A stretch of 64,000 bases of DNA from a virus: the UHGV virus genome UHGV-0120889; one strand, given 5' to 3'. The first letter of the stretch is position 1. Every line of letters starts with the position of its first letter. Positions 9,080 to 64,000 of this stretch are shown here, one piece after another. The position numbers and the translations under genes were made by a program. Under the pieces are notes generated by a model. That model ran no database searches. It was not told the origin of the DNA and saw nothing but the letters and a program-made list of their open reading frames with translations.

Positions 9080-9166
9080 TGGTGGGGAGTGGTGGAGTCG
9101 AACCACCCGAGTCGTAATGACAATAGATTTACAGTCTACACCGCTACCTCTACGGGATAACTCCCC
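9080..9166 (-). tRNA. tRNA-Tyr (anticodon GUA), long variable arm
   Basis: Acceptor GGGGAGU/ACUCCCC, anticodon stem GUAGA/UCUAU with loop CUGUAAA, T-arm GGUGG-UUCGACU-CCACC, encoded CCA. Confidence 0.75.
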
Positions 9167-9170
9167 AATT

Positions 9171-9245
9171 TGGCACCCCGTACTGGACTCGAACCAGTGT
9201 CAACGGCTTAGAAGGCCGCTGCTTTATCCACTAAGCTAACAGGGC
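9171..9245 (-). tRNA. tRNA-Arg (anticodon UCU)
   Basis: Acceptor GCCCUGU/ACGGGGU (two G.U), anticodon stem GCGGC/GCCGU with loop CUUCUAA, T-arm ACUGG-UUCGAGU-CCAGU, encoded CCA. Confidence 0.75.
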
Positions 9246-10559: not shown

Positions 10560-11127
10560 AGTAAATCTTATTTAACATTACCTCATCCTTTGCAGAAAGA
10601 ATACCGAGATATGCATCACCGAACCTACCTGCAACAACCTCTACATGATACATAACTTCGTTAATATCGTCAAGAGTGATAACTGGATGACCGTACCTCT
10701 CTGAGTATTGTCTCAGAGTGCGATGTAGGGAATCATCATCGTAGGCAGACTTTTTAATATCACAAACACGACGAATAGCCTTGATGTCGAAAAACCCTGT
10801 GCGATACCAACCAAGAAAAAGGTTTCGTACAGTGTCAACACCTACATCAACACCGTCAAGAACCTTATCTACAAGATAGCTGTCATCCTTTGGACCTGCT
10901 TCCTTAGTTCGAATGTAGTTGCCATCTTTTCCTGGTGACAGCTCCTTCTCATCACCAACCTGAATGCCATCATTTGGCGGTGTTAACCACTTATCCGGAT
11001 GCTTACGATCACGAGCGTTAGAATGATTACGCTGGAAACCTGGCTTCCACTTGAAAGTTTTCTCCATCTGTTCTTCATTCTGATAACGTTTTGCAATCTT
11101 TTCACGGTCATCTTTGCGTGGACTCAT
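10549..11127 (-). CDS. hypothetical protein
   Basis: 192 aa ORF with plausible start; no recognised motif. Confidence 0.45.
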   Translation of the reverse strand: MSPRKDDREKIAKRYQNEEQMEKTFKWKPGFQRNHSNARDRKHPDKWLTPPNDGIQVGDEKELSPGKDGNYIRTKEAGPKDDSYLVDKVLDGVDVGVDTVRNLFLGWYRTGFFDIKAIRRVCDIKKSAYDDDSLHRTLRQYSERYGHPVITLDDINEVMYHVEVVAGRFGDAYLGILSAKDEVMLNKIYYER

Positions 11128-11634: not shown

Positions 11635-11717
11635 GTGTCCGTATCACGGACAGTTAGTGTCCGTATTACGGACAGATGTGTCCGCGTGACGGACAGTAGT
11701 GTCCGTATCACGGACAG
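11635..11717. repeat. array of four tandem palindromic 19-bp iterons GTGTCCG(T/C)NTNACGGACAG, period 21-22 bp, next to AT-rich tract 11589-11634
   Basis: Units start at 11635, 11657, 11678, 11699; each is an inverted repeat GTCCGT..ACGGAC. Direct observation. Confidence 0.85.
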
Positions 11718-11783: not shown

Positions 11784-12143
11784 TTACTGGTCTAACCAGT
11801 TGTTGACATTCGAATAACTTCTTCTGGTGGCAAAACTTTGGAAAATGTGCATCTTTTTACCTCTCCCTTGTGTGGATATTTCAACCACTCCTGCACATTC
11901 TAAAGTTTTAACGCACGCTGCTGCTTTTGTTTTCTTTATCCCAATATCTGCTGCAATTTTCCTTGTGCTGGGCGTGAAGCGTGAATTTCCTCCAAGCTTA
12001 TACCAGTTGTGCAGGTAGCAGTATACGATCTTGTCATATAAGTCAAGAACAACAACCTCACCAGTTGTGTCATTCAAAACTTTTGACATAGACAGTATTT
12101 CAAGGGGGACTTTAAGATATAGCAGCTTATCCCCATCTTTCAT
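11784..12143 (-). CDS. putative helix-turn-helix DNA-binding protein
   Basis: 119 aa; segment STRKIAADIGIKKTKAAACVKTLECAGVV resembles an HTH; gene ends 67 bp from the iteron array. Confidence 0.45.
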   Translation of the reverse strand: MKDGDKLLYLKVPLEILSMSKVLNDTTGEVVVLDLYDKIVYCYLHNWYKLGGNSRFTPSTRKIAADIGIKKTKAAACVKTLECAGVVEISTQGRGKKMHIFQSFATRRSYSNVNNWLDQ

Positions 12144-12190: not shown

Positions 12191-12745
12191 TTACTCCACG
12201 CTGTCAATAGCAAGACTCATTGCAATACGGTATGCCTCTTCTAATGGTAAGAGTCTCCCCCACACATCCCAACCGACATCAAACTGCCTGCCAAACAACT
12301 GCTGTGTGGTTCCGTGAGCATGACCGAACAGTTGGACCGATCCGTGAGGCTTTCTGTTCCACTTTGCAAACTGGTAATGGCTCATACAGATCAAATTCTT
12401 GTTGTGGCGAAGCTCGTAATAATCTACAACCTCATGACCGAACTCTTTCATAATTCTGACAGTCGTCCTTGTGTCATGGTTACCACGAACAAGAATAATA
12501 TGTCCGTTCAACATATTTAGAACATCTGGGAGCAATTTGTTAATATTCTTATCATTAGTGCACGCAATATCTCCTAAGTGAAACACAGTGTCTGCAGGTG
12601 ACACAACAGAGTTCCACTTGGTGATGATCCCCGCATTCATACTGTCAAGATTGTGATCATACTGAGATCTGTGTTTTTGACATGAGTCAAACTCCATGAC
12701 CCGCTGGTGGAGAAAGTGTGTGTCGCTTGTTACAAAGTATTTCAT
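12191..12745 (-). CDS. calcineurin-like metallophosphoesterase
   Basis: Motifs SDTHF, GDIACTND, GNHD, GHAHG; track ORF trimmed to ATG at 12743-12745 (MKYFVTSDTHF) to remove overlap with upstream kinase gene. Confidence 0.65.
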   Translation of the reverse strand: MKYFVTSDTHFLHQRVMEFDSCQKHRSQYDHNLDSMNAGIITKWNSVVSPADTVFHLGDIACTNDKNINKLLPDVLNMLNGHIILVRGNHDTRTTVRIMKEFGHEVVDYYELRHNKNLICMSHYQFAKWNRKPHGSVQLFGHAHGTTQQLFGRQFDVGWDVWGRLLPLEEAYRIAMSLAIDSVE

Positions 12746-21076: not shown

Positions 21077-21408
21077 TGACTAAAAATTCTGTAGATAACG
21101 CAATTATGGAAGCTGTTTTTGAGGATGATCACACAACAGGGACACTTAAAACAAAAAATACATTCGTTGTTGCCACAGGTATGTGGCGGTTGTATGAAGA
21201 TGACACCATTTCATACATCCTGTACACGGATGATTACGCAGATGACCGTGTATGGTCTGCTGTTTTAAAAGAGGATTGTGAGCTGATTGAGGGCGAGCGG
21301 TTATGCATGTTCACCAGTGTGGAAACAGATGTTAAGCTTTGCTCTCTCGTATTGTTCAAAGATAAGGCTTATGCTCCTGATGAAGGAGAGGAGGATGAGG
21401 AAGCATGA
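21073..21408 (+). CDS. hypothetical protein
   Basis: 111 aa acidic ORF. Confidence 0.35.
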   Translation: MMTKNSVDNAIMEAVFEDDHTTGTLKTKNTFVVATGMWRLYEDDTISYILYTDDYADDRVWSAVLKEDCELIEGERLCMFTSVETDVKLCSLVLFKDKAYAPDEGEEDEEA

Positions 21409-35079: not shown

Positions 35080-35142
35080 TTCTTGACAAAAGCCACAAGA
35101 ATGTGGCATATTATTGACACACAGTGAGCTAGGAGGTGCAGT

Positions 35143-42061: not shown

Positions 42062-42121
42062 TGTGCAATAAGGCACAAAGGATGTGCCATAACTAAATAA
42101 ACTAAGAAAGAGGTAGAGAGA

Positions 42122-50638: not shown

Positions 50639-53102
50639 CACACAATTAGCTGCCCGGCTAAAGTGCTGGAAGCACCTATAACACATCTTTCAACTAAATT
50701 TCCTACCACCACAATCACTTACCTCCCACACATGACTGTTTGCTTGTTTAGTGAGCAGTCATGCCTTGACATTCTTGCCTATCTTGATAAAATTAAGTTC
50801 TTCTCTTTTCTTTTACCGAGTAATTCGGGTTTTCTGTTCTCTTCGGTTTGAAGGGGTATGGAGATACACCTGAGTGAACAGGGTGAACAACCGAACCTTT
50901 GGCTATGGCATTAGCATGGCGAAGCGGACGGGTGACGAAAGAGGGGCCGGAGGACACCAGTCACTGCCATATGATATATGGGTGATAACCTGAAGAGTCT
51001 GAATAAGTGTTTAAGTACCAGTCAGAGGAAAAGGTGAATGGTAGCCGAAGGGGGAGGGGGGTTTCTTGTATCTTTAATTTGTATATTATGTATACACTTG
51101 TAAACCAACACCATCTGAATTTGTTTACCACAGAAAGCGGATAGAGACAAATATTACCTATTAAACTTGAATTATTTATAGAAAATACCACAACACCACT
51201 TAAGTATTTGATTTTACACATAAATCCTACAGATATTCACCCTCCATATTTAACATACTTGTAACATATTCCATACTCTACCTGTCTGATCAATTTCCCC
51301 AACTACACCCACCATATTTTCCCTGTCTGTACCACCCCTGACCCGCCGGGAGTCCCGTCATATCTGGCTTTCCAGCAAATATCACACCCACAAATATCAT
51401 TGCCTGAAGAGGGTTTCATCCCATAATACATGCCTTACCTGAAGAGCGCTTCATACACCACGTAAATTTTTTAATTGACCCCCTCCCCGCCGCCGGAGAG
51501 GTTGTCTTTTCCCACACAGACCTGAAGAGTCAGTCAGAAATATCTGAATGGACCCAATTCTGCCCTGTCATGAGCGGTAGCGACTGGAGTGCTGCCAGGC
51601 GGACGAAATGGGAATACTTCTCATTCTTATAATAATTCTCAAATATCGAGGCAGTGAGGAAAATTAATAGGTGAGGCCGTTCACACAGTGGCACAACATT
51701 TGCAACCTATCTTGTGGGGGTGAATGAGAATACCTATCATTGTGAGAATAGTTATCATTACGGGCAATTTAACATAATACCCATTATGCGCACCACTGGC
51801 GATCCATACAGGGATTGATAACATGAGTTACAGTTTACGCATATAACAATCATATTTCTTACTATTTGTGTGGGATATAGTTAGCAGCCGATAGATTAGA
51901 TATTGACCTGTGGACTTCCAACCATCTAGACGTCTAAACGCCCACACAACAAGGATTATACATACATTACTGAATGTAAACAGGGCCGCAAAAATGCTAC
52001 CATACCAGTTTGTAAATTTTTCATGCAGCACTTGACAAAGAGGAGGAAAACTTGTCTGACATAATGTGACCTAACTGACACAACATGACACTTTTACACA
52101 CCTATTAGTTTACACACTGGATTGTTTACATTCCTGATTGTTCACATGCTAACCATTTACATGATTGACTGTTTACACACCGATAATCAGCCATGCCATT
52201 CGTTTGCATGACAATAATTATACATGACAATAATCGCACTGATTATAATTAGCATGACATAATATAAAAGCAGGGCAACTATTAGCAGATCTATAGTTGC
52301 CTTGCTTGTCATGTCATGATTAACTAAATACAAGGCAACTATGATCTGATTAATAGTTTGCAGACAAACTATCACGGGGGTGATGGTTACTGCTTTTATA
52401 TTATGTCGCGACTCCGTCGCGCCATGCCATTCGTTTGCATAGTTGCCTTATTGTTACAGGTAAAATAATTGTATTGTTAATTATTTCTTATCTTTCTATT
52501 AGTCATCTAATGATTCCAGTTAGTATAGTAACGTACAGTAAACATTAGACGACTAAAGATTTCTCTGCTTATGATAACCTAACGTGACAATTTCAGACTG
52601 TTTACGAAAAATGTTGACACCTGAGCTGATTTATGTTATGCAGTTTACACGAATAATTATTTTATGCAGGTATTGACTATTCCGTTATTCTATGGTTGGA
52701 ATAAATACTTAGCAGACTATAGAATGGTGAGCGTACGTAAATTCTGAGATCTGTCGGCTATAGTTATACTCGATTTTTCACGTAGAACACGCTTTTTGGT
52801 TTGTGTAAGTGTATGACTTATAAAGATTTTTAGTTGTTGACAAGATATTGGAGATGTGCATCAGATTAAATTTTGTGCAATAGCTACATTACGTGCACTT
52901 TTGGAAGAAAAAACGTGTAAAAATGGCCCTGCTACCACACAATGAAAGATTATGCAATAGTTATTTTATATGTATATTTGTACAGTGTGTGGGATTAATG
53001 GCTAGTCAATTATTCCACTTGCCAGGTAGGGCCGTTTATGGTAGGAGAAGAGCAGACAAAAAGAAAGGGGCCTTTAAGCCCCTTGATAATTCAATTAAGA
53101 AA

Positions 53103-53522
53103 TTATAATGATTCGTATATTTCAAAAATCCGATTTGCCAGGTCGTTACGGTAGCGGAATTTTTCATCACGCTTGATCATTAAATCCTTATAGCCGTACT
53201 CTTTAAGCACTTCATTAACTTTATGGCGGCATACCTGCATATTATCTTGAGCGTCACCAATAAATCTGTTGCTATGGTGCATGGCTTTAATTTCTTCTTC
53301 CAGGACCAGGGCAACTATGCGGACCGGATCAAGCTGATAGGCGGTAACATCCATGCGGCATTGTAAACGGCTTTTTACGTCTGCCACCGGATATACTGCA
53401 ACCTCTTCCCCGTCAACATTGACAATAATTAGTTTACCATCGATTTCGAATCCTTTCGCCGCCGGACCGTGACAAAAAGCGTTATCAAAGCTATATGCCG
53501 GATTATTAGATTTAATGTTCAT
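53103..53522 (-). CDS. hypothetical protein
   Basis: 139 aa; first gene of minus-strand block. Confidence 0.4.
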   Translation of the reverse strand: MNIKSNNPAYSFDNAFCHGPAAKGFEIDGKLIIVNVDGEEVAVYPVADVKSRLQCRMDVTAYQLDPVRIVALVLEEEIKAMHHSNRFIGDAQDNMQVCRHKVNEVLKEYGYKDLMIKRDEKFRYRNDLANRIFEIYESL

Positions 53523-53666
53523 GGTGTTTTTACCTCTTAGTTAATTTTCTTACAACTTCCCTTCAAAAAAGAATATAGCAAAACTGCCGATCCCTGTCAA
53601 CCAGGGATAGCATAATTTTTATGTGATCAAGGGGCTTTATTGCCCCTGACCATGTAACTTGTTGTA

Positions 53667-53930
53667 TTATTTGTTGCTCATCCAGTTTTCCCAAGCTGCC
53701 TGATAATCTGCCTCACTACGGCGGATCTCTTCTTGCTCTTCAAGGCGGATCTCTTCTTCCAGGTACCCCAAGATGTCAGCCTTTTTAGTCTGGCGTAGCA
53801 TCCAGTCATCTTTTTTGCGAGTGAAGATCTTATAAGCTTTCTCGCAAACCTCTTTTTTGCTACCTTTCTGGACTTCAAGAACACGATAAGCCATATATTG
53901 AACTAATTTGAGCTGATCAAGACGTTTCAT
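53667..53930 (-). CDS. hypothetical protein
   Basis: 87 aa charged. Confidence 0.4.
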   Translation of the reverse strand: MKRLDQLKLVQYMAYRVLEVQKGSKKEVCEKAYKIFTRKKDDWMLRQTKKADILGYLEEEIRLEEQEEIRRSEADYQAAWENWMSNK

Positions 53931-53990
53931 GATGTTTACCTCTTTGTGCGGTTCTGATTAGTGGGCCTTTTGGCCCGTGTCATTATCTTA

Positions 53991-54263
53991 TTACTTATGA
54001 CGGCAGAGTTCAAGCGTTTTTAATTGATAATCTTCCTCAGCTTGGAGTACGACCGCCTCGATCATTTCGTTGGCATTGTTAAAGCCATAACCTTTAGCGA
54101 ACTCATCCGCGCCACCTTCGTGATCATGTTCTGCGTTCATCGCTTCCACAAAATGGAATTCCAAATTGTTGAGGTAGGGGCTTGATGTTCCGTCCTCTTT
54201 TTCGATGAGATCCCAAATAGCATTAAAACGTGATTCGACTTCTTGATTAATCCAGCTTGACAT
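53991..54263 (-). CDS. hypothetical protein
   Basis: 90 aa acidic. Confidence 0.4.
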   Translation of the reverse strand: MSSWINQEVESRFNAIWDLIEKEDGTSSPYLNNLEFHFVEAMNAEHDHEGGADEFAKGYGFNNANEMIEAVVLQAEEDYQLKTLELCRHK

Positions 54264-54480
54264 AGTGTTTTCCTCTCTCCTGGTTGTTGTGTGGGCACTT
54301 TTGCCCCTTCAAGATAAATGTTACCTCACCCCATGGCAGATGTCAACGGTTTTTATAGTTCTTATATGACAGGCAGGCCCGGTGATTGTCTCCCCCTGTT
54401 CCCAAGTGCCGCCCGTTTAATAAGAATAGCAAAAGGGGCCGAACAAGTCAACCCCAAAATCAGTACCAAAACACTTTTAT

Positions 54481-54792
54481 TTATACGGTCCGATCATTGG
54501 CCTTTGTCCAGGACCTGGCGATCCGTTTCCCGGTCACCTGGAACGGAGGCTGCATTGTGTGTAATGAGTCCAGAGTAAGGGAGGACCGTTTACGGCGTAT
54601 CTTCAGGATCGCTAACGTATTGTCCATCTCACGGCCAGGTCCTGGGCGGTATGGTGTGCCTCCAGCGTTAAGGTTGATGATCTCATGTATTGAGATCCGG
54701 CGTTGTTTTGCTTCCGCATCTTTGAAGATAGCCAGCGGAGGCGCTATGCGTTGCCGATACCAATCTAAAACGGTTGGCGTAATAGCGATCAT
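54481..54792 (-). CDS. hypothetical protein (coding status uncertain; GC-rich locus)
   Basis: ATG overlaps stop of upstream gene (ATGA), but region also carries 11-bp inverted repeats CCAGGACCTGG/CCAGGTCCTGG (54507-54517 and 54631-54641). Confidence 0.3.
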   Translation of the reverse strand: MIAITPTVLDWYRQRIAPPLAIFKDAEAKQRRISIHEIINLNAGGTPYRPGPGREMDNTLAILKIRRKRSSLTLDSLHTMQPPFQVTGKRIARSWTKANDRTV

Positions 54793-54980
54793 ATTTTACC
54801 CCCTATGTAGTCCGGTCGGTTTTTCTCTGTCATACGCTTAAGCAATTCTTGCATGTTGCTTATGGCTTGTAGTGTATCCTCTTCAAGGGATGAATCAAGA
54901 TAATCAGGATCATTCTTCACCTTGCAATGATTATGATAACGCAGTACCGCCAGTACTTTTTTAACTTCTTCCGCTGTCAT
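54789..54980 (-). CDS. hypothetical protein
   Basis: 63 aa. Confidence 0.35.
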   Translation of the reverse strand: MTAEEVKKVLAVLRYHNHCKVKNDPDYLDSSLEEDTLQAISNMQELLKRMTEKNRPDYIGGKI

Positions 54981-54988
54981 TATCGCGC

Positions 54989-55123
54989 CTAAAACAATGA
55001 GTTAATATATAACACCAGATCGCTGACTACCAGGACAACATTAATCAGCACATACCTAACCATAAAGGGAAAGATCGCCAACATTGCCGCCACGATCCCC
55101 ATGGTAATAATTATCTTTCTCAT
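54989..55123 (-). CDS. micro-ORF encoding 44-aa hydrophobic peptide
   Basis: MRKIIITMGIVAAMLAIFPFMVRYVLINVVLVVSDLVLYINSLF; starts 2 nt after upstream stop. Confidence 0.3.
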   Translation of the reverse strand: MRKIIITMGIVAAMLAIFPFMVRYVLINVVLVVSDLVLYINSLF

Positions 55124-55125
55124 GG

Positions 55126-55410
55126 TTAACGGTTCACGTAAGTTTTCCCGTTTACGGTTATCGGCAGATCCTCCAGGTCTGGATCTTCTTTAAGGTCGTG
55201 AGCAAGTTCACCGCACCGAACGCCCTCGAATCCGTAGTACTCTGTCGTGCCATCCTGGAAAGTTTTAGCGGCAAGGCATAGGCGATAAGTAACACCGATT
55301 TGATTGACGGCATGGATATCAGTTAGATCTACCTCTTTTGCCAGCTCTTTGGCCATTACAGGCGCATTAAGTCCAACAACCAGGGCAACCACTGCGATCA
55401 TCTTTTTCAT
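55126..55410 (-). CDS. secreted/periplasmic protein
   Basis: N-terminal signal peptide MKKMIAVVALVVGLNAPVMA. Confidence 0.45.
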   Translation of the reverse strand: MKKMIAVVALVVGLNAPVMAKELAKEVDLTDIHAVNQIGVTYRLCLAAKTFQDGTTEYYGFEGVRCGELAHDLKEDPDLEDLPITVNGKTYVNR

Positions 55411-55541
55411 TGTATCTATCCTCTTTCTGCTACGTTTAAGGCGGCGGCAACCGCCTGTTTATGCTTTGTTGGTTAATTTTCGGGTATCGGTATAAATTAA
55501 ACTATGCTGTACGCTCAACTATAACAACGGCTTGAGGGATC

Positions 55542-55718
55542 TCACCTTCCACCACTATCAAGGCTTTTTTTCTGCGTAATGGATATCTTTACCCGCTTCA
55601 GCGTGGCGGTAAAGTCTTTCATTTCGTCGCGTGGTGTTTTAGTGCAATGCCAGATCTCAGGCTTACCTATTTGCAAGCCGCGTAAAAATTCTGTTTTTCC
55701 TGTTTTGTTAGTGATCAT
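55542..55718 (-). CDS. hypothetical small protein (58 aa)
   Basis: Hand-translated minus-strand ORF MITNKTGKTEFLRGLQIGKPEIWHCTK...; below track cutoff. Confidence 0.3.
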   Translation of the reverse strand: MITNKTGKTEFLRGLQIGKPEIWHCTKTPRDEMKDFTATLKRVKISITQKKSLDSGGR

Positions 55719-55727
55719 TTGCCAACC

Positions 55728-55832
55728 TCACCCGATACCGTTGGAAGACAAGATCACATTAGCCATGGTTGCAATCAGGCCAATACCCAGGGTAATAACC
55801 AGGATCACCGCATCAATTAATTTCTGTTTCAT
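55728..55832 (-). CDS. micro-ORF encoding 34-aa hydrophobic peptide
   Basis: MKQKLIDAVILVITLGIGLIATMANVILSSNGIG with RBS AGAGGAA. Confidence 0.3.
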   Translation of the reverse strand: MKQKLIDAVILVITLGIGLIATMANVILSSNGIG

Positions 55833-55922
55833 TTTGTTTTCCTCTTCTTGTTCCAGGTGGCGGACCATTCCACCGCCTTATGTATTATGCTTTGTAAGAT
55901 GGTTGTTTGTTTTCAAACTATT

Positions 55923-56102
55923 TTAACGATAATCATCGTACGCTTTATTAACCTGGCGAATATAACATTCAAAAGCCAGATCAATAGATTTATATTCACG
56001 GATATACTCACCATAGGAAACCACATACATTTCTATAGCTTCCTCATATGCGAGGAGAATAGAATCCAAGCCTACGATCTCAGTCTTTGCAATAATAGCC
56101 AT
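55923..56102 (-). CDS. hypothetical small protein (59 aa)
   Basis: MAIIAKTEIVGLDSILLAYEEAIEMYVVSYGEYIREYKSIDLAFECYIRQVNKAYDDYR with RBS AAGAGGA. Confidence 0.4.
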   Translation of the reverse strand: MAIIAKTEIVGLDSILLAYEEAIEMYVVSYGEYIREYKSIDLAFECYIRQVNKAYDDYR

Positions 56103-56173
56103 GATTTTTATCCTCTTTGTGGTTGGTGGGGCTTGCCCCTTTGATTTATATACTACAGTCTTATATGGTCATG

Positions 56174-56407
56174 TCAACTATTTTCAAAAAATTTTTCTGC
56201 TGTGATATTTTTCCCGGTCGGATTTGCTACTTTCAAAATTCTATCATGAACCGGACGCCCGAAAGAATAAGATCCGTATACAGTAAACCAATAATCGCCG
56301 TCAGGTTGTACTATTACCGCCGCATATGGTACGCCTTTTTCGTTTTTGCTGACAAAATAGATCACATTGCCATTAATAGCCTCAGCGCGTTTAATTTGTT
56401 CCATCAT
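56174..56407 (-). CDS. hypothetical protein
   Basis: 77 aa. Confidence 0.4.
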   Translation of the reverse strand: MMEQIKRAEAINGNVIYFVSKNEKGVPYAAVIVQPDGDYWFTVYGSYSFGRPVHDRILKVANPTGKNITAEKFFENS

Positions 56408-56461
56408 GATGATTTACCTCTCTTTATTTTCATAATTGGGGCCGAAAAGGCCCCACCAGGT

Positions 56462-56746
56462 TTATTTATTGATAGCGTGCAGCGGGAAAGGTACTCCAGG
56501 TTGATAGATAACTTTTACAACCTCATCAGGGCAAAAGAAATTGCAGAATTCACCCTGATAAGCCTCATCCTCTTTCAATTCTTCATCAACATACTCAAAA
56601 AAGTAGTCGATGCTTGGATAATCCTGGCCGGGATTATAGTCTACCATCGTTAATAACAATTCTTGATCATTCCGTAGGATATGCATACCCGCTTTTAAGT
56701 ATTTTGCTTCCATTTCCACTACATCGCCAACGGTGACAATAGCCAT
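56462..56746 (-). CDS. hypothetical protein
   Basis: 94 aa acidic. Confidence 0.4.
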   Translation of the reverse strand: MAIVTVGDVVEMEAKYLKAGMHILRNDQELLLTMVDYNPGQDYPSIDYFFEYVDEELKEDEAYQGEFCNFFCPDEVVKVIYQPGVPFPLHAINK

Positions 56747-56947
56747 GATTTTAACTCCTATCTATCCGGTTAATGATTGGGGGCCGCCCCCCTGACACGT
56801 CCTATTATCCATATTGTAGGACTTGATGCAAGTACTTCTTTAAAAATTTTTTAAGCGCCTTGGGGCCGCTGTAACGCTAAAATAATAAAGGCCATGCAAC
56901 CGCATAGCCTTTATGTGATTATATCGCTGCAGGCCCTGCCTGGGGCC

Positions 56948-57298
56948 TTATTTTGCATTCTTGCCTGTATTGCCGCCACGGTACCAGCGTTTGCGGTGAA
57001 AATGGTAATAATCACCCTCGGCATTAAACATCAGATGATTTTCAATAACCAGCTTACGAAGGTGGGCCGGATCTTGTTCCATTCTTGCCAGATTCCGGCG
57101 GCTGTTACGTAAGCGTATAAATTCCATATTCAGGCCGTTGATTGCAGCATGGATGTCAAAGTAACCCCCTTTGAGACGTTCACGCATGGCGTTAAGCTCA
57201 ACACAATATGCAGATTTCTCACAAATCAAGGTATTAGCCAGGGCGCGGACCTGGGCAAGGGGGTTAAGCTCATTAAGGTAATATAGTTTGACTTTCAT
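56948..57298 (-). CDS. hypothetical protein
   Basis: 116 aa basic. Confidence 0.4.
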   Translation of the reverse strand: MKVKLYYLNELNPLAQVRALANTLICEKSAYCVELNAMRERLKGGYFDIHAAINGLNMEFIRLRNSRRNLARMEQDPAHLRKLVIENHLMFNAEGDYYHFHRKRWYRGGNTGKNAK

Positions 57299-57315
57299 AA
57301 AATCACCTGCTGAAA

Positions 57316-57636
57316 TTAGTTTGAGAAAACATCGTTCACAATAGCGATCACAATGCCGCCCACCTTGTCACGGTCAACAATGCACAAATCGCCATGGATC
57401 ATGCGGTAGTCTGGATGATCTTTCACAGAATAGTCAATAAGTGTTTTCTTGTCGTCCAGCTTCGTAACTTCCATTCTCATAACGATATGAGAATCATCAA
57501 AGGCATTATTCCGAAAAGTCATAACCTGACCGCCAGGGCACCCGGTGATCTCCACTTCCACGCCGTCTACGATCTGACCATCAAAGAAATAAAGATTATT
57601 AGCCTGGATAAACATGATCATTACTCCTTTTTGCAC
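57316..57636 (-). CDS. hypothetical protein
   Basis: 106 aa; lies downstream of 44-bp element copy A. Confidence 0.4.
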   Translation of the reverse strand: MQKGVMIMFIQANNLYFFDGQIVDGVEVEITGCPGGQVMTFRNNAFDDSHIVMRMEVTKLDDKKTLIDYSVKDHPDYRMIHGDLCIVDRDKVGGIVIAIVNDVFSN

Positions 57637-57659
57637 TGATTATTTTAACAGGGTTTAAA

Positions 57660-57703
57660 TTTACTTTATTGATGGCCCTGGAGTCAAGGCCATCTAAAAA
57701 TAA
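57660..57703 (-). repeat. conserved 44-bp intergenic element, copy A (palindrome GATGGCC-N10-GGCCATC around TTGACT)
   Basis: Plus-strand TTTACTTTATTGATGGCCCTGGAGTCAAGGCCATCTAAAAATAA; identical to 61405-61448. Confidence 0.85.
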
Positions 57704-57706
57704 ATT

Positions 57707-57907
57707 TTACAGGCCTACAATCTCTTTAATTCGTTTTACTGCTGCCTCAGCGCCTTGAGGGTAAAAATTATGGTAACCAATCACGCGAGTGATACTAATC
57801 GCCGTTTGATGATCTTCATAATACCCCTTGAATATTTCTTGACCATCAACCAGCACAGCAATTTTTTCTTCTTTTTTGAAGTTAATAACGCGGATATTGT
57901 TGCTCAT
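57707..57907 (-). CDS. hypothetical protein
   Basis: 66 aa. Confidence 0.35.
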   Translation of the reverse strand: MSNNIRVINFKKEEKIAVLVDGQEIFKGYYEDHQTAISITRVIGYHNFYPQGAEAAVKRIKEIVGL

Positions 57908-58192
57908 TTTGTTTCCCCTTCTGGAACTTTGTCTGTGTGGTGGGGAGTGTCTCCCCGTTGATTGTTATTATCCATATTCAGGACCGGATTGCAACACCCC
58001 GGAAGAAAAATTTTTTGAAAAAAGTTAGGCCCCCAGGGATCGGGGGCCGTTATCAGTTACTTACAGAGATAAAATACATCCCTACTCCTAACAATATTTC
58101 AAGGGCGATGATCTCAAGCCATACCATAACACGGCGCACCTTATCAGCGCATGGCTTATCCTTGGTTGTCATCGTCTCCCCCTTCCCTCCTG

Positions 58193-58414
58193 TTAGTAGT
58201 GACGTGGTTTACAATGGCCCCCAGGAGTCCTATCACCACGCACACCACAAGAAAAATTATCTCCGCTGTTGTTCGATCCATTGTTATAAAATTCCTCAAG
58301 ATCAGGCCTGAAAATAAAGCGTTCGTTATTGAATCCGTCACGCCAGGCGGCTGGCTTCAAATCTTCACTAAAGGGATTAATTAACGTGGCGTTATTTAAA
58401 CGGCTGGTCCACAT
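58193..58414 (-). CDS. hypothetical protein (overlaps an alternative-frame TM ORF 58156-58341)
   Basis: Two overlapping candidate frames; cannot choose by eye. Confidence 0.25.
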   Translation of the reverse strand: MWTSRLNNATLINPFSEDLKPAAWRDGFNNERFIFRPDLEEFYNNGSNNSGDNFSCGVRGDRTPGGHCKPRHY

Positions 58415-58763
58415 ATTTTCTATTCCTCTCAAATAGGCGATCCGCCTCAGTTAAACATATCTCATGGGCTTGGTCTCTGGTTTTAGCCTCATCAAAAACC
58501 TGTTGTGCCAGGCTGCAGCGTAGGGAGACTGGAAGATCACTATAATAGGCGTTGACAAACGTTTGTGCGTCATACAGGTCGGAAAACACTTTACCCTTTC
58601 TATTATCGCCCTTGTCAACAATTGCAAGGATAACCAATACAATAGTTGCAACCACTCCCAGGAAAATAGATATAACAAACCATAGAAAAGCGGATCTACC
58701 TATCTTGCCAGCGATCCAGGCGTTGAACAAGGCAACTACTACAGCCAAAATAATAAATTCCAT
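58392..58763 (-). CDS. membrane protein (two predicted TM helices)
   Basis: Trimmed to ATG 58761-58763 (MEFIILAVVVALFNAWIAG...FLWFVISIFLGVVATIVLVILAIV). Confidence 0.45.
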   Translation of the reverse strand: MEFIILAVVVALFNAWIAGKIGRSAFLWFVISIFLGVVATIVLVILAIVDKGDNRKGKVFSDLYDAQTFVNAYYSDLPVSLRCSLAQQVFDEAKTRDQAHEICLTEADRLFERNRKYVDQPFK

Positions 58764-58827
58764 TCTATGTACCTCTTTTGCAGTTCTGTTTAACAATAAG
58801 GCGGCAAATATGCCGCCTGTTACCTGA

Positions 58828-59208
58828 TTAAAAATTATCGCCGTAAATCTTTCCGCTTTCTGCCCACACCACCACGCGGGGCATGTTATCCCATACATCT
58901 TGTTTCAGATTTAACGCGTGCAATTCTTCGGTGGTGCTCATACCAGGCACGGGCTGATTGTATACTGCAAAACGACCACCTGCATAATCATAGGCCAGAG
59001 TTAAATCACACTGAATCATCTTTTTGATCATGGCGTTAAGCATAGCGTTAGCCGCATACTGGTCACGTTTTAAAGGCAACTCTTTGATTAGTTTGCGATA
59101 GTTTTCGATATGGTCGCACACTGTTTCACGTGGAAGATCTTTCATATCTTCACGGAATGTAACCAGGTTAAACATAACGGTGTCAATAGCTTTAGTAGTG
59201 TTTTTCAT
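58828..59208 (-). CDS. hypothetical protein
   Basis: 126 aa. Confidence 0.4.
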   Translation of the reverse strand: MKNTTKAIDTVMFNLVTFREDMKDLPRETVCDHIENYRKLIKELPLKRDQYAANAMLNAMIKKMIQCDLTLAYDYAGGRFAVYNQPVPGMSTTEELHALNLKQDVWDNMPRVVVWAESGKIYGDNF

Positions 59209-59298
59209 GATGTTTTCCTCTTTGTTTTGTGTGGGGGCAAACGTCTTGCCCCCTTGAGTTTTAATATAGCAGGTTTTTAGGTTATTGCAACACTTTAT

Positions 59299-59922
59299 TT
59301 ATGAAAAAGTCATCTCACCATATTCATCTACATCAAACCGCCAATCATTGGCCTCGATAAGGCCGATCAGGTTTTCTGCGGTGAACTGTTCTAGATAGGC
59401 CTCCTCCAGGTCTACGTAAACCTTGCGGGATAGCTCCCGTACCGTCTCGGTGATCAGTTCTTCCAGGTCTTCCACTTTGTTTTCTTGTTTGGCGGTCAGA
59501 TCTAGCCAAGTGGTATCAATGTACCCGCTTACAGTGTTTTCATGGCTGTAATGGCTGTACTTGTCGCGTTCAACACTGGCTGATAACTCGCCATCGTGCA
59601 TTGTGCCGAACAAGTGACGAATTGATCGGAACTTGGTCAGGGCCTTTACTTTACGCAAAAATTTTTCTAAATCCACGTTTTCAGCACTGATTGACGCGCC
59701 GTCACCCTGGCACCAAAAGCCGGACCAATGTACTTCGGTATCTTCAAGGCCGTACTCTGGAAAGATATATTCTTTGTAGTGTTCAATTACACTTTCTGCA
59801 AAAAAGTCATCCCCGCTGTGTTCTTCTCTTTCGCGTACCATTTCAATGGCTTTTTCTTTTTGTTCGTCGGTCAGCACGTCGAAAGATAAATTGTAACCTG
59901 TGGTAATGTTAACGGTGGTCAT
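59299..59922 (-). CDS. hypothetical acidic protein
   Basis: 207 aa; largest ORF of the block; no recognised motif. Confidence 0.45.
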   Translation of the reverse strand: MTTVNITTGYNLSFDVLTDEQKEKAIEMVREREEHSGDDFFAESVIEHYKEYIFPEYGLEDTEVHWSGFWCQGDGASISAENVDLEKFLRKVKALTKFRSIRHLFGTMHDGELSASVERDKYSHYSHENTVSGYIDTTWLDLTAKQENKVEDLEELITETVRELSRKVYVDLEEAYLEQFTAENLIGLIEANDWRFDVDEYGEMTFS

Positions 59923-59996
59923 GATATTTTCTCCTGTTTTCTTTGTTAGTGGCGGTAAGTTTTCCCGCCTGTGTGTTTAATTATACTTATTGAGAT

Positions 59997-60257
59997 TTAC
60001 TTGTCAACACTATTTTTTAAATTATTGTGGCGCAAAATGTTTAAAATCTCCTCAACGTCATCAACACGGCGGCAATTTTTAAACGCTACCAATTGCCCCA
60101 TGATTTTAATCACTGGGCGGCCTTGCCAGTGCCCCTGGAGAAAGCGCGCCTTGACTTTATCGGTGGAACTATCACGCCACCAAATGGCCTTGTTGTTGCA
60201 GTAGTAAAAATTATTCAGGACAACATCAACTTTATCAAAATTTTTTAATTTACGCAT
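59997..60257 (-). CDS. hypothetical protein
   Basis: 86 aa. Confidence 0.4.
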   Translation of the reverse strand: MRKLKNFDKVDVVLNNFYYCNNKAIWWRDSSTDKVKARFLQGHWQGRPVIKIMGQLVAFKNCRRVDDVEEILNILRHNNLKNSVDK

Positions 60258-60498
60258 GGCGTTTACTCCTTTCTCTCTTTGATGTGGTTAGTATAGCTAA
60301 CCTGTTTAAGATGTCAAGCTTTAAATAAAATCACTGTCAATGATATTTTTAACGCCATAAAACGGCCCTAAGCGATGTTTTCAGGTTAAAGGGGGGCGAT
60401 TGCATAGGTGGGGCCTTTTTGGCGCTTACAGGGCCAACCAGGGGCGCTATTCGTAGGATAGAAATAAAAAGCCCCGCACAATGGCGGGGCGTTGGTTG

Positions 60499-60696
60499 TT
60501 ATTTGTCTTTATGGCGGTATCGTTCTGCCTGTCGTTCACGTTCCAAAAGTAGGCCAGGCAATTTACGATCATAATGATTTCGCCAGATCTTTCCAAATCT
60601 TTTTGGCTTATTCAGTTTATTGTTACGCTGGCGTCGTTCCGGCAGCTCTTCGGAATCATGAGATCGCTTTACAATCTTCTCAAAATTAATCTTCAT
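60499..60696 (-). CDS. hypothetical basic protein
   Basis: Trimmed from track ORF 60499-60720. Confidence 0.3.
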   Translation of the reverse strand: MKINFEKIVKRSHDSEELPERRQRNNKLNKPKRFGKIWRNHYDRKLPGLLLERERQAERYRHKDK

Positions 60697-61057
60697 ATAT
60701 TCCCCCCTTGCTAACTTCAATATTGGCCTGAATAGCCCGGATACGCCGTTTTATAACCTCCTGATCCTTGCAATCATATCCCCAAAAGTCTACGATTTTT
60801 GCGCCTCCAGCCTTTAGGCGGTATAGTGTTTCTTGCATCTTGTAGGCCGGGATCGGTCGCGGTGTTACCTGGTCGCCCTTCTCATTCTTGTACTTGATAA
60901 TGTAGTCTTCATTGTCGTTGAATATCCAAAATGGGTATTCTGTGAGCGCGTTGCTCTCTTTTTCGTTTTTAGATTGGATCTTGTTTACAATTAAAGCCGT
61001 AGCAATAGCGCCAATAATAAAACTTGCCCCACTGATCATGTTACTTTCTCCTTTCAT
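60686..61057 (-). CDS. hypothetical protein with N-terminal TM anchor
   Basis: N-terminal ISGASFIIGAIATALIV. Confidence 0.4.
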   Translation of the reverse strand: MKGESNMISGASFIIGAIATALIVNKIQSKNEKESNALTEYPFWIFNDNEDYIIKYKNEKGDQVTPRPIPAYKMQETLYRLKAGGAKIVDFWGYDCKDQEVIKRRIRAIQANIEVSKGGIYED

Positions 61058-61115
61058 TGTATTGATAAACTATCTTTATAGATGGCCCTGCTACCAGGAC
61101 CACCGAAAAAACAGT

Positions 61116-61361
61116 TTATTTGACGATACCGACAAAACAGATCCCGCCTTCCCCTATATAGGCAATATCGGTAATTTTATAATTTGTCAAGATCCGCGTG
61201 TTCAGCTCATTAATAAAATCTGTCATCGCGTTGGTGTAGTTGTCTTCCGTGTCTAAGGCATAATCCCAGGTGTAAACCTTTTTACGTCCGAAGCCTTTTA
61301 CCATGATACGGGCGCTTTTGGTGTTGGTAGGGGCATAATATTTGGTGATTAGTGCTGCCAT
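61116..61361 (-). CDS. hypothetical protein
   Basis: 81 aa; downstream of element copy B. Confidence 0.4.
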   Translation of the reverse strand: MAALITKYYAPTNTKSARIMVKGFGRKKVYTWDYALDTEDNYTNAMTDFINELNTRILTNYKITDIAYIGEGGICFVGIVK

Positions 61362-61404
61362 GGTTTTAACTCCTATGCATTAGTTCAGTGTTAACAGTAT
61401 AAAG

Positions 61405-61448
61405 TTTACTTTATTGATGGCCCTGGAGTCAAGGCCATCTAAAAATAA
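61405..61448 (-). repeat. conserved 44-bp intergenic element, copy B
   Basis: Identical to copy A. Confidence 0.85.
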
Positions 61449-61450
61449 TC

Positions 61451-61792
61451 TTACTCGTTTTCTTCCAGCTCCGCAAGCTCTTCTTTTGCTTCTTCTAACT
61501 CTGTCTGTAATTCCTGGTATTCTTCATCGTCCTCAATATCCAGGCTGTCGATGTAGTCGCTAAATCCGCAGCGGTAAGCGATAGGATCTAGCTCCTTGAG
61601 GATACGCGACGGAAGAAAAGAAATGTTTCCGATCATGATTTCGCCGTAGATCTCGTCTAACCATTCATCATAGTTTTCGTCGTACTTGTCCTCGTCGATT
61701 TCAAAGGTATCGATCTTGTTCTCAAGGTCTGCGATCTGTTTTTTCAGTGCGGCAACCTGAATAGCTTTTTCTGCGGCGGTCATAGTAGTCAT
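61451..61792 (-). CDS. hypothetical acidic coiled-coil protein
   Basis: 113 aa. Confidence 0.4.
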   Translation of the reverse strand: MTTMTAAEKAIQVAALKKQIADLENKIDTFEIDEDKYDENYDEWLDEIYGEIMIGNISFLPSRILKELDPIAYRCGFSDYIDSLDIEDDEEYQELQTELEEAKEELAELEENE

Positions 61793-62015
61793 GGTGTTTT
61801 CTCCTTTTGTGTGTTCTGGGAAGTTTTCCCGTTTACGGGTTTAAGTATACCGATCTAAGTTAGCTTGTCAATTAAAAATTTAAGAAAAATTTTGCAAAAC
61901 TGTTAGCGCTACTCATTAACATTTGCGCCAGGATGTAACCGACAACGCAGACGATAATAGTTACCTTTGTGTATTGGCGTGTAGTGCCCATCTTAAAGCC
62001 CCCTTTTTCGCTTAA

Positions 62016-62059
62016 CTGAGATTAGTTTACTTTATCGATGGCCCTGGAGTCAAGGCCAT
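62016..62059 (-). repeat. conserved 44-bp intergenic element, copy C (one mismatch)
   Basis: TTTACTTTATCGATGGCCCTGGAGTCAAGGCCATCTAAAAATAA. Confidence 0.85.
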
Positions 62060-62071
62060 CTAAAAATAAAC

Positions 62072-62476
62072 TCAATAAGTTTTTAGTACTTTCCCGTCCA
62101 ACCTGTCTAGCTGGATCTCAATGGCTGCAGAAAACCTATTATAAACCACGTCGCCCATGGAATCCAACCAGTCTATGACGTTATACACTTGCTCTTTGTT
62201 CTTGCAGGTCCGGATCCGTTTCATGATGTAAGCCGGATCAATATTGGTACTCTCGTTGGTGTTCCCCTGTACCTGGTTTGCCGTATTAGCTACATCTTTA
62301 ATGGCCTTTACCACCACCTGGAAGGGCTTTAAGGTGCCTTTTGCGTTCATCTCACGCGCTTTTGCGGCGCGGTTGTTATAGGTTACACAACGGCGGCAAA
62401 TGTTCACTAAGTGCATGTCAATAATTTTTTCATCGTTTGCCAGTTCGTTCATGATGCGGCGTACGTTCTTATTCAT
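62072..62476 (-). CDS. hypothetical protein
   Basis: 134 aa. Confidence 0.4.
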   Translation of the reverse strand: MNKNVRRIMNELANDEKIIDMHLVNICRRCVTYNNRAAKAREMNAKGTLKPFQVVVKAIKDVANTANQVQGNTNESTNIDPAYIMKRIRTCKNKEQVYNVIDWLDSMGDVVYNRFSAAIEIQLDRLDGKVLKTY

Positions 62477-62558
62477 GATCTTTTTCCTTTGTGCTGGCGG
62501 GAAACATTCCCGCCTTTTGTGTCTAGTTTACTTAAATTTTGCAGCGTGTCAATGATTT

Positions 62559-62957
62559 TTATTCGTGGGCGCATGTCACAATGTGCTTTTTATAGCCCAG
62601 GTGGTCAGCAAGTGCCGACAAAAACTCTTCTTCGTAGATCCAGCCGTCGGCAGTGATCCCCATAGCATTTAATGCACTCTCAAGTGCTGCGTTAGCTTTA
62701 TCGTAACCGTGACCGCTCGCCTTGCCGCCAGTATAACCGTACTTATTGTTCTTGTTGTCGTGAATCCAAAACACGCAGTAGTGAGTGTTACCACTGGCGG
62801 CGGCATAATACCGGATCTCAGCTACTTCGTGCAAATTATTGTCATCGTCCAGGCCCACCAGATTATAAGCCTTGTAAAATCCACGATCACGGCGGCAGTT
62901 CTTGACATCAGAAAAAGAAAAGTCCGCATTATCAAAATTAAAGGTAGTGGTTTTCAT
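62559..62957 (-). CDS. hypothetical protein
   Basis: 132 aa. Confidence 0.4.
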   Translation of the reverse strand: MKTTTFNFDNADFSFSDVKNCRRDRGFYKAYNLVGLDDDNNLHEVAEIRYYAAASGNTHYCVFWIHDNKNNKYGYTGGKASGHGYDKANAALESALNAMGITADGWIYEEEFLSALADHLGYKKHIVTCAHE

Positions 62958-63020
62958 GATTTTATCCTCTTAGTGTCTTTTGCGATTTCAGTGTATTTTG
63001 TGTCAGACCATATGTCAACA

Positions 63021-63218
63021 TTATTTTTTATTAAACCAGTGGTTGATCTGACCTTTTGTCAGGGCGCAACGGTTAAGCTGTTGCAGGGTATAGCTATGAC
63101 CGCGACGAAATTTATAAAGGCCTTGCCCGTTGTTGATGGTTACATCCACCCGGCAAATCACTTGATTGGTGACCACCTGGCGAGTGTTGCGACGTACTTT
63201 AATTCCGTAGGCGTTCAT
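63021..63218 (-). CDS. hypothetical basic protein
   Basis: 65 aa. Confidence 0.35.
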   Translation of the reverse strand: MNAYGIKVRRNTRQVVTNQVICRVDVTINNGQGLYKFRRGHSYTLQQLNRCALTKGQINHWFNKK

Positions 63219-64000
63219 GATTTTTTATCCTCTCTGTTAATTGGTGTGGTGTTGTTCACCTTGCGAGGATAAGAATAACAAGAACTGTCCGAGCTGTCAA
63301 CCATTAGTTAAAATTATTTTTTGGGTAGAATTCTCCAGCCGCCGCCCCTGCCAGGTTAACCATCATTTTTCGTACTCTTCTTTATGTTCCAACGCTCCCG
63401 CCATAGCCTTTTCAACCAGGGCGATAGCCTCAGCGTCATTAATAGCTACATTTTCCAGGTGGATCATATTACCTTCCATTTTTGTACCTCCTCTTCAATT
63501 GTTACCTATCCTATAGCATAGGCCCACCAGGTTTGCAAGCCTTCATTCTCTCCTACCTGGTCAGTTAGGCCCTGCCAGGCTGGCCCCGCCAGGTTGCAGC
63601 GGTCAGCGCATCAGGTTAGAATTTTTTTTTTTTTTGAAAAGTGTTGACAGCGGCCCCGCCAGGTGGCAAAATATACCTATCGAAAGGACGGCAGGCACCG
63701 GTGACGGGGGAGACAATCACCGGGCCTGCCCGTTATTCTGCAAACGAGAATGATTATCATTCAAAATTCTAAATGAGAACTCCTCGCATTTAATAAATTT
63801 AATTAGCACGCTAATTACCCTCCGTAACAATTTCCTATAAAATAGTATCCACTAAAATATTCCCATATAGAAATTTTAAAAATCCATTTCTGAAAACGAA
63901 AAATCGATTTCGTCCCCAAAAATTTCAGGTCGAGAGCCGGAACGATTTCCAGAAAATCCGATTCAGAAAACGAAAAACAGATCGAGTACTGAGAAATTTA

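Follow-up and report, generated by a model that had tools for sequence, protein, structure and literature searches.

Compact promoter and stem-loop cassettes in the presumed early gene block of an rV5-like coliphage

Early promoters coupled to stem-loops have been described in the T4-type phages RB49/phi1, PST/T4, and nt-1/KVP40 as promoter-early stem-loop (PeSL) cassettes (Arbiol et al. 2010, PMC2839356; Comeau et al. 2014, PMC4122927). In RB49/phi1, a PeSL combines a sigma-70-consensus early promoter, an upstream AT tract, a Gn-loop-Cn stem-loop, and a Shine-Dalgarno (SD) sequence, lies next to ORFans in hyperplastic regions, and is implicated in modular shuffling (PMC2839356, PMC4122927). 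Stabilizing stem-loops have also been described at the 5' terminus of Escherichia coli mRNAs, namely ompA, papA, and bla with an appended hairpin (Emory, Bouvet and Belasco 1992, as summarized in PMC3997798). In this report, we analyzed the GC-rich hairpins found in the intergenic gaps of a minus-strand block of small genes (53-63.5 kb) in UHGV virus genome UHGV-0120889, of which a stretch of 64,000 nucleotides (the window) was studied. The window comes from an rV5-like (Vequintavirus) coliphage, and the block is presumed to be early. The cassettes that we describe are PeSL-like and extend this concept to Vequintavirinae and Stephanstirmvirinae, with a different position for the stem. For the overall reading that the hairpins are parts of compact promoter/stem-loop cassettes making almost every ORFan of the block an autonomous unit, the main class of hairpins protecting or insulating the mRNA, we see the case as evenly balanced. 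No description of promoter-hairpin coupling in these phages, or of transcript-end mapping in Vequintavirinae or Stephanstirmvirinae, was found in the literature.

The first finding is that hairpins are abundant in this block, as the original prediction had claimed, and all six examples quoted in it are present. The coordinates given there were exact for one hairpin (60471-60490) and shifted by 1-9 nt for the others, whose true positions are 53631-53646 (given as 53630-53646), 53963-53976 (53962-53975), 56438-56454 (56429-56445, 9 nt off), 59233-59253 (59231-59251), and 62496-62514 (62503-62521, 7 nt off), the last reading GGCGGGAA-ACA-TTCCCGCC, with arms that had been parsed differently. When perfect hairpins (stem of at least 5 bp with at least 4 G:C, loop of 3-10) were counted against 100 first-order Markov shuffles, bases 53000-63500 held 33, as opposed to the 7.7±2.9 expected (maximum 15), an approximately 4-fold excess that rises to approximately 12-fold for stems of at least 6 bp (14 versus 1.2±1.1). 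A consensus scan for terminator-like structures found 28 versus 12.3±3.5 expected, and manual reading of per-gap folds placed at least one GC hairpin in about 19-20 of the 21 intergenic gaps of at least 50 nt. In the fold-energy check proposed alongside the original prediction, the z-scores of single hairpins against dinucleotide shuffles span -0.6 to -4.35, and seven of 16 folded segments were more stable than all 200 shuffles. Significance therefore rests on the number and placement of the hairpins, and not on any one of them. Nor do they form one single class, as had been supposed, since we found three arrangements: hairpins in the 5' leader (class A, the majority), hairpins just after a stop codon (class B), and hairpins within a repeat that encloses a -35 box (class C).

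The second finding is the anatomy of class A, in which we have high confidence, and which became apparent when the upstream region of each gene was anchored on its ATG. On the coding strand, an AT-rich tract is followed by a promoter of the form TTGACA-N16/17-TAnAnT, an A-rich discriminator of 8-12 nt, a GC hairpin with a stem of 4-9 bp and a loop of 3-10 nt, an A/C-rich and U-poor linker, a strong SD, and the ATG. The promoters, which the original prediction missed entirely although three of its six examples (53963, 59233, and 62496) belong to this class, are sigma-70-type matches of 9-12 of 12 that precede most genes with a gap of at least 60 nt (TTGACA-16/17-TAnAnT); a scan of the block gave matches of 12/12, 11/12, and 10/12 at cassette sites, and TGTCAA, the reverse complement of TTGACA, is visible all along the plus-strand text. 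Nine of them coincide with the independent predictions of the rV5 genome paper (Table S4; P164-P195A), in which the promoter sequences end just ahead of the hairpins and none of these hairpins is given as a terminator. The 20 nt located 5' of the -35 are 73% A+T, versus 57% for the whole block. In the window, class A hairpins begin 8-11 nt past the -10 box and 5' of the SD, and they are therefore part of the 5' leader of the downstream gene. On the minus strand of the window, promoter and hairpin pairs are confined to the 53-63.5 kb block. The linkers, which are of the ACACAAA type, contain 52% A, 22% C, and 15% U, compared to a block average of 25% U. The SD is unpaired in all predicted folds, and translational repression via SD sequestration was rejected on this ground.

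The phasing of hairpin to promoter is not restricted to rV5-like phages. It recurs in phi92, KKE7M, and phAPEC8 at genes unrelated to those of the block; these three are members of another subfamily (Stephanstirmvirinae) and have only scattered genes in common with the block. From the last base of the -10 to the first base of the hairpin, the distance is 9-14 nt in them and 9-11 nt in the window. Most block ORFans carry their own host-type promoter and a phased leader hairpin: in a non-redundant set of promoter and gene cassettes from the window, phi92, and phAPEC8, a leader hairpin (dG of -5 or lower) is present in 23 of 37, and it starts 9-12 nt past the -10 in 15 of these 23 (binomial p ~9e-8 versus uniform placement). 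In these three phages, a coding-strand tail with at least 5 U among its 8 nt follows none of the 29 class A hairpins, and five of the 29 have such a tail on the antisense strand; of the eight class B hairpins of the window, six have it on the coding strand. The original prediction that most hairpins are without a coding-strand U-run is thus correct for the promoter-proximal ones and wrong for those after stop codons, among them one of its own examples (60471-60490, followed by UUUUUAUU). In phi92, KKE7M, and phAPEC8, discriminator and stem are stereotyped as nTAyCACrTAg-GGCGGGAAA-nnn-TTTCCCGCC. The phAPEC8 record (L007) annotates 20-mers at the position of the leader hairpins as "putative promoter determined with PHIRE", right after sigma-70 promoters found with MEME; these PHIRE promoters are probably leader hairpins and not promoters. 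The 20-mers lie at 9555-9574, 10970-10989, 11820-11839, and 12201-12220 of phAPEC8, just 5' of gene starts, and the one at 9555-9574, at least, is directly 3' of a MEME sigma-70 promoter.

Comparison with PeSLs, the closest described system, shows similarities and differences. In both types of cassettes, an AT-rich tract lies upstream of a near-consensus sigma-70 promoter, a Gn-loop-Cn stem-loop is adjacent to the promoter, and an A/C-rich leader with a strong SD runs up to the start codon. Both also recur ahead of small ORFans in hyperplastic blocks, and in both cases close relatives differ by gene indels whose breakpoints lie in the cassettes and which leave hybrid or orphan half-cassettes behind. 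The main difference, apart from lineage (Straboviridae versus Vequintavirinae and Stephanstirmvirinae here), is the place of the stem. Running the same script on a 30-kb stretch of RB49, we found 18 stem-loops. Relative to the end of the -10, seven of them start at -24 and so lie inside the spacer, seven others start at -13 to -17 and span the -10, three start upstream of the -35, and one starts downstream (+9). The stem-loop is thus inside the promoter in 14 of 18 RB49 cases, whereas its dominant place here is 9-12 nt 3' of the -10 (15/23), and only class C and the hairpins at 53590-53608 and 60286-60302 have an RB49-like geometry. A rare subclass with the stem-loop "downstream of the -10" is listed in the 2010 PeSL paper (PMC2839356). 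A stem 3' of the -10 sits in the transcript of its own promoter and, unlike in RB49, where the -10 box provides one, has no U/A-rich tail, and the lack of a U tail in class A would argue against PeSL-like termination. In this respect, classes A and C also differ from intrinsic (Rho-independent) terminators, which have the GC stem and coding-strand U-tract seen in class B, whereas a coding-strand U-tract is absent from class C and from all class A hairpins. Class A resembles the ompA, papA, and bla stem-loops in that a simple hairpin of no fixed sequence is predicted to open the leader, ahead of an accessible ribosome-binding site, and in that its structure is kept while its sequence is not, which would be consistent with an effect that depends on structure. 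However, those stem-loops are at the very 5' end and are features of single genes, whereas here 2-5 unpaired nt are predicted from the position of the -10 and of Y-1/R+1 steps, and the design is repeated on many genes of one phage block.

Conservation was studied in six close relatives from GenBank (85-96% identity), because a search of IMG/VR with the 207-aa protein returned two close relatives only, which made formal covariation statistics impossible. The hairpins have changed in these relatives by clustered substitutions, insertions and other indels, a register-shifting seven-base replacement, and loop inversions, and the stem is kept in every variant (-5 to -18 kcal/mol). In two hairpins, the loop is exactly inverted between close relatives (L001-L009) while the stem is unchanged, at 56444-56448 (ttttc/gaaaa) and 62504-62506 (tgt/aca); the hairpin at 56437-56455 has the inverted loop, gaaaa, in all relatives examined. 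To judge from the sequences, such inversions are a signature of inversion or template switching across an inverted repeat. Five of the six indels among the window and these relatives break inside cassette elements. Their junctions, verified at the sequence level, fall at hairpin edges and within class C repeats, but also in the linker/SD and at a TTGACA box. A gene-plus-hairpin module (54435-54786) is missing from five relatives, its left breakpoint being the edge of the hairpin at 54435-54455; the gene at 57298-56948 is missing from two, with a breakpoint at the hairpin at 56931-56948; JES2013 has an extra gene flanked by repeated linker-SD-ATG segments; and S127 BCL3 and L009 have one or more extra genes exactly between two TTGACA boxes. 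An orphan -35 hexamer in the window (TTGACA, 60338-60343, minus strand), is the scar of a crossover between two such boxes; it lies 20 nt 5' of the -35 hexamer that is functional, and the two hexamers start 26 nt apart. Relative L008 is missing 61452-62023 and has a chimeric class C repeat in its place, a deletion that recombination between class C copies 2 and 3 explains. The anatomy, the phasing, the conservation of structure, and the breakpoints can thus be read directly in the sequences.

What class A hairpins might do is a different matter. That they protect or insulate the mRNA is the reading that we favor, although tentatively and with a little less than an even chance, and we infer both the transcription start site (TSS) and any effect on mRNA stability or translation. 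Host RNA polymerase would start approximately 7-8 nt past the -10, at Y-1/R+1 steps that are found in nearly all cassettes, so that the hairpin is predicted to be the first structure of the mRNA, with approximately 2-5 unpaired nt ahead of it. There, the stem-loop could shield the 5' end, and it could give the leader an identical fold in monocistronic and read-through transcripts, so that the SD would stay open; the U-poor linker would offer few RNase E sites. This would be in line with the finding that a 5' hairpin stabilizes bla mRNA and impedes RppH (PMC3997798). In a secondary role, the cassettes, because they are similar to one another, may act as recombination points at which ORFans are added, deleted, and swapped. 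Several observations weigh against protection. RNase E cleaves substrates with four unpaired nt before a stem, and its scanning is hardly hindered by a simple stem-loop (PMC11194081), so any protective benefit depends on the exact TSS, and the predicted 2-5 unpaired nt are borderline; no mapped transcription start for any rV5/phi92-like phage was found in the searchable literature. A leader hairpin is missing at fourteen of the 37 promoters, a promoter is missing at some hairpins (56437-56455 and 55439-55456), and several single hairpins are no more stable than shuffles (z -0.6 to -1.9). Moreover, both strands of each leader fold with about equal energy, which gives no pointer to the functional strand, and our own tally of single-side stem changes in relatives (approximately five G.U versus two A.C events) is too small to decide.

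If the hairpins do protect, they could be a self-marking device by which early ORFan mRNAs of rV5, phi92, and phAPEC8-type phages are exempt from 5'-end-dependent decay while the phage speeds up the decay of host mRNA, an idea that we regard as unlikely. T4 Srd stimulates RNase E. A homologue of Srd in rV5 is gp11, according to the rV5 genome paper, and the gene of this type lies outside the present window. In another version of the same proposal, the phi92 group's stereotyped CACrTAg-GGCGGGAAA hairpin could be recognized by a phage factor that times early expression.

Other explanations have to be weighed against mRNA protection and insulation. As PeSL-type attenuators, class A stems might, as proposed for RB49/phi1, stop or attenuate read-through from upstream cassettes and leave each ORFan mainly on its own promoter. 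Indeed, the PeSL211/210 stem-loop placed between a promoter and lacZ cut expression about as much as rrnB T1 (PMC2839356), and the stems studied here have the same Gn-loop-Cn style and likewise occur among ORFans and indels. However, a U-rich coding-strand tail is found in 0/29 class A hairpins; the RB49 stem is followed by a U/A-rich -10 box and the stem here by ACACAAA-type linkers; a terminator 3' of its own promoter would stop the transcripts of that promoter too; and, where termination is evidently wanted, the block has canonical U-tract terminators 5' of promoters. We consider attenuation fairly unlikely. The original prediction had instead considered termination of antisense transcription, the hairpins stopping plus-strand transcription that enters the block, and had noted that several are followed by T-rich sequence on the opposite strand. 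The latter is true in the window, where four of eight class A hairpins have at least 5 U in the 8 nt past the stem on the plus strand and where the terminator scan flags 59233-59253 and 62496-62514 on that strand, but such a tail is kept in only one of the 21 equivalents in phi92 and phAPEC8, where the conserved discriminator TAyCACrTAg gives no antisense U-run. This T-richness is the complement of the A-rich discriminator, -10, and initial transcribed region, and promoters without hairpins are equally A-rich (45% A). Antisense termination is therefore not a conserved property, and it also leaves the fixed distance to the -10 unexplained; inside 53.1-63.5 kb there is no strong (at least 10 of 12) plus-strand promoter match. 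As a design feature, it is highly improbable.

It is also conceivable that the hairpins have no RNA function. Their inverted repeats might then persist as hotspots at which DNA recombines or the template is switched, or as short palindromes of a selfish kind that travel with promoters. The loop inversions show arms interacting at the DNA level, breakpoints coincide with hairpin edges, recombination between class C repeats deletes two genes, and recombination is proposed as the key role of PeSLs (PMC2839356, PMC4122927). Nevertheless, this would leave unexplained why, in two phage subfamilies, the hairpins keep within a narrow distance of 9-12 nt from the -10, and why stems remain stable through many independent changes. 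Several breakpoints, moreover, miss the hairpin and lie in the linker/SD or the -35 box. In our view, a lack of RNA function is quite unlikely. Finally, a phage factor or RNA polymerase might bind the leader hairpin as a specific recognition element. The hairpin might then be a nut/put-like antitermination signal or a translational operator, serve as a phage-specific promoter, or form a hairpin-stabilized pause at which transcription is coupled to translation. The lambda nut boxB and HK022 put hairpins are promoter-proximal antitermination elements with defined loop and stem sequences that occur once or twice per genome. Similarly, class A hairpins are short and GC-rich, and polymerase would transcribe them shortly after leaving an early promoter; the terminators that lie downstream would give an antitermination signal something to override; discriminator and stem are stereotyped in phi92, KKE7M, and phAPEC8, where cassettes are more uniform; and the annotators of phAPEC8 marked 20-mers here as PHIRE putative promoters. 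In contrast to nut and put, however, there is one hairpin per gene, and stems and loops vary, with at least five unrelated stem types in the window (GGGGC, GGGGAG, GGGGGCAA, GGCGGGAA, and GGGCC) and loops of 3-9 nt that have no common motif, while the likeness of paralogous cassettes can result from their recombining with one another. Nor is a match found in Rfam: at the gathering threshold, a search of the whole window with Rfam 15 found nothing relevant to the block hairpins and nothing at all in 53-64 kb, where the best sub-threshold matches at E <= 1 (E 0.23 and 0.54) are to unrelated families. Specific recognition thus seems to us very unlikely.

These results define a regulatory design that is used by coliphages of the rV5, phi92, and phAPEC8 types, a widespread group of therapeutic candidates. 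If it is true that the hairpin stabilizes or insulates the mRNA, this would explain the robust expression of dozens of tiny early genes, and the block would be a natural library of compact, portable expression cassettes. If it is true that the cassettes drive recombination, this would explain the mosaicism in gene content between near-identical phages, and the PeSL concept would extend beyond T4-type phages in this respect as well. A consequence for annotation is that terminator predictors miss class A entirely.

The individual class A cassettes, all on the minus strand like every block feature below unless a strand is given, illustrate how a constant architecture is built from different stems. 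The leader hairpin at 62496-62514 (GGCGGGAA-tgt-TTCCCGCC; -14.6 kcal/mol, z -3.95, 0/200 shuffles as stable) is 10 nt past promoter 62552-62525 (TTGACA-16-TAAACT, rV5 P194) and precedes the gene at 62476-62072. The one at 59951-59969 (GGCGG-gaaaactta-CCGCC, z -4.28) is 10 nt past promoter 60007-59980 (TTGACA-16-TATAAT, rV5 P185), before the gene at 59922-59299; its stem is 8 bp in relatives, GGCGGGAA-aac-TTCCCGCC, one c>a change shortening the window copy. The hairpin at 59233-59253 (GGGGGCAA-gacgt-TTGCCCCC; -15.9 kcal/mol, z -4.02), 9 nt past promoter 59290-59263 (TTGCAA-16-TATATT) and before the gene at 59208-58828, has a register-shifted variant of equal stability in L002/L003. At 57942-57956, GGGGAG-aca-CTCCCC follows promoter 57994-57967 (TTGCAA-16-GATAAT) by 10 nt, in front of the gene at 57907-57707. 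The hairpin at 56779-56792 (GGGGG-gcgg-CCCCC), 11 nt past the weaker promoter 56831-56804 (TTGCAT-16-GATAAT) and ahead of the gene at 56746-56462, has a z-score of only -0.58, and six sequence variants in relatives are all at -8.4 to -12 kcal/mol. For the gene at 56102-55923, the leader hairpin at 56128-56139 (GGGG-caag-CCCC), 10 nt past promoter 56177-56150 (TTGACA-16-TAGTAT, rV5 P174), has a longer stem in relatives through a +GCAA insertion, and for the gene at 54263-53991 it is GGGCA-aaag-TGCCC at 54293-54306, 11 nt past promoter 54346-54318 (TTGACA-17-TAACAT, rV5 P168). At 53963-53976, GGGCC-aaaa-GGCCC (z -3.85) is 8 nt past the weaker promoter 54013-53985 (TTGAAC-17-TAAGAT), which overlaps the 3' end of the upstream gene, and precedes the gene at 53930-53667.

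Other leaders depart from this architecture to some degree. Downstream of promoter 61871-61844 (TTGACA-16-TATACT, rV5 P192), the gene at 61792-61451 has two overlapping weak hairpins at 61818-61839 (CCCG-taaa-CGGG and GGGAA-aac-TTCCC, z -1.3), a weaker class A case in which only the second is kept in relatives. The hairpin at 55856-55877 (GGCGGTGG-aatgg-TCCGCCACC, z -2.98), which has a perfect 10-bp stem in L003, is in the leader of the gene at 55832-55728 with only a poor promoter match upstream (TTGAAA-18-AAGCAT), and AGGCGG-ttgccg-CCGCCT at 55439-55456, before the gene at 55410-55126, has no convincing promoter at the canonical distance. The SD duplex energies of block genes are -6 to -13 kcal/mol.

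Class B hairpins give partial support to the original prediction of a 3'-end role, which fits a minority of the hairpins and does not fit the majority, including three of the six quoted examples, in 5' leaders. The six class B hairpins with a U-tract are ordinary intrinsic terminators, and four of them match terminators of the rV5 paper (t164, t177, t181, and t184). The hairpin at 60471-60490 (GCCCCGC-cattgt-GCGGGGC, z -3.27) follows the gene at 60696-60499, that at 58028-58048 (GGCCCCC-gatccct-GGGGGCC, then UAACUUUUUU; rV5 t181) follows the gene at 58172-58053, and that at 56885-56914 (a 13-bp stem, then UAUUUUAG; rV5 t177) follows the gene at 57298-56948, whose stop codon is abutted by the second hairpin, at 56931-56948, which coincides with the indel breakpoint. 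The hairpin at 58799-58818 (AGGCGGCA-tatt-TGCCGCCT, then UAUUGUUA; rV5 t184), between the genes at 59208-58828 and 58763-58392, and that at 54435-54455 (GGGGTTGACTTGTTCGGCCCC, then UUUUGCUA) are terminator-like, the latter with TTGACT in its loop and stem, 17 nt from TATTCT. The sixth, at 53065-53084, corresponds to rV5 t164. The two remaining post-stop hairpins are AGGGGC-aataaa-GCCCCT at 53630-53647, which has a U-tract on neither strand and is 22 nt 5' of the -35 of the next promoter, and an orphan at 56437-56455 (TGGGGCC-ttttc-GGCCCCA) with neither promoter nor U-tract. Classes A and B often share one gap, in the order terminator, promoter, leader hairpin (e.g., 58048 and 57956, or 54455 and 54306), and are therefore different devices. 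At 4-10 bp, the stems fall far short of the length usual for substrates of RNase III, and processing sites for this enzyme were rejected on such general grounds.

Class C is an approximately 45-nt repeat with three copies and one degenerate copy, without a coding-strand U-tract, in which a 10-bp stem (GATGGCCTTG/CAGGGCCATC) encloses the -35 TTGACT of a TTGACT-18-TAAAyT promoter. In copy 1 (57671-57694; -25.2 kcal/mol, z -4.35), the stem, with one G.U on the coding strand, lies around the -35 of TTGACT-18-TAAATT and is extended by U-rich and A-rich arms. Copies 2 and 3 are at 61416-61439 and 62037-62060, and a degenerate class C-like hairpin with extended AU arms (GGTCCTG-gtag-CAGGGCC, 61084-61101) precedes the gene at 61039-60686. 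Two other stems touch promoters: ATCCCTG-gttga-CAGGGAT at 53590-53608 overlaps the -35 of promoter 53600-53572 (rV5 P164), and GGTTAG-ctata-CTAACC at 60286-60302 spans the -10 of promoter 60317-60290 (rV5 P186).

The block genes were mapped by open reading frame and SD scoring, in agreement with annotation in relatives, which yielded approximately 30 small ORFan genes of 34-207 aa on the minus strand. All ten of the block proteins tested belong to PHROGs of unknown function, and relatives have them annotated as hypothetical. Many rV5-like coliphages (Vequintavirus) match bases 53000-63500 at 93-98% identity, one example being Shigella phage CM1, with 96% identity over the full length. At the edge of the block, a run of 14 T (63620-63634, plus strand) lies between the upstream region of the last minus-strand gene and a plus-strand promoter at 63644. 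A long near-perfect hairpin at 63690-63730 (plus strand; GGCAGGC-A-CCGGTGA-cgggggagacaa-TCACCGG-GCCTGCC), lies 17 nt 3' of that promoter (TTGACA-17-CAAAAT, 63644-63672); it could act as a terminator at the block boundary or belong to a small structured RNA. The segment at 63708-63761 is present twice in relatives, and a diverged copy of the 3' half of this hairpin is found at 54370-54400 (minus strand), in a 217-nt gap after TTGACT-17-TATTCT (54451-54423).

Elsewhere in the window, two hairpin-dense patches, at 8.4-9.2 kb and 11.6-11.7 kb, are unrelated to the block hairpins. The former is a cluster of seven tRNA genes (8432-9245, minus strand; Pro, Met, Thr, Ser, Tyr, Arg, plus an odd 99-nt call whose anticodon has 4 bases), and the latter, at 11636-11706, is an intergenic array of 3-4 tandem copies of the palindrome TGTCCGTAT(C/T)ACGGACA, which looks like an operator- or origin-like array of binding sites. 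A group I intron is present at 6634-6912 (minus strand; Rfam RF00028, 84 bits, full-length match). In plus-strand blocks, related palindromes of the forms GCCACA-n4-TGTGGC and GGCACA-n5-TGTGCC are found at 21172-21187, 35092-35107, and 42072-42088; one of them directly follows a TTGACA, and they may be a regulator site of middle or late genes.

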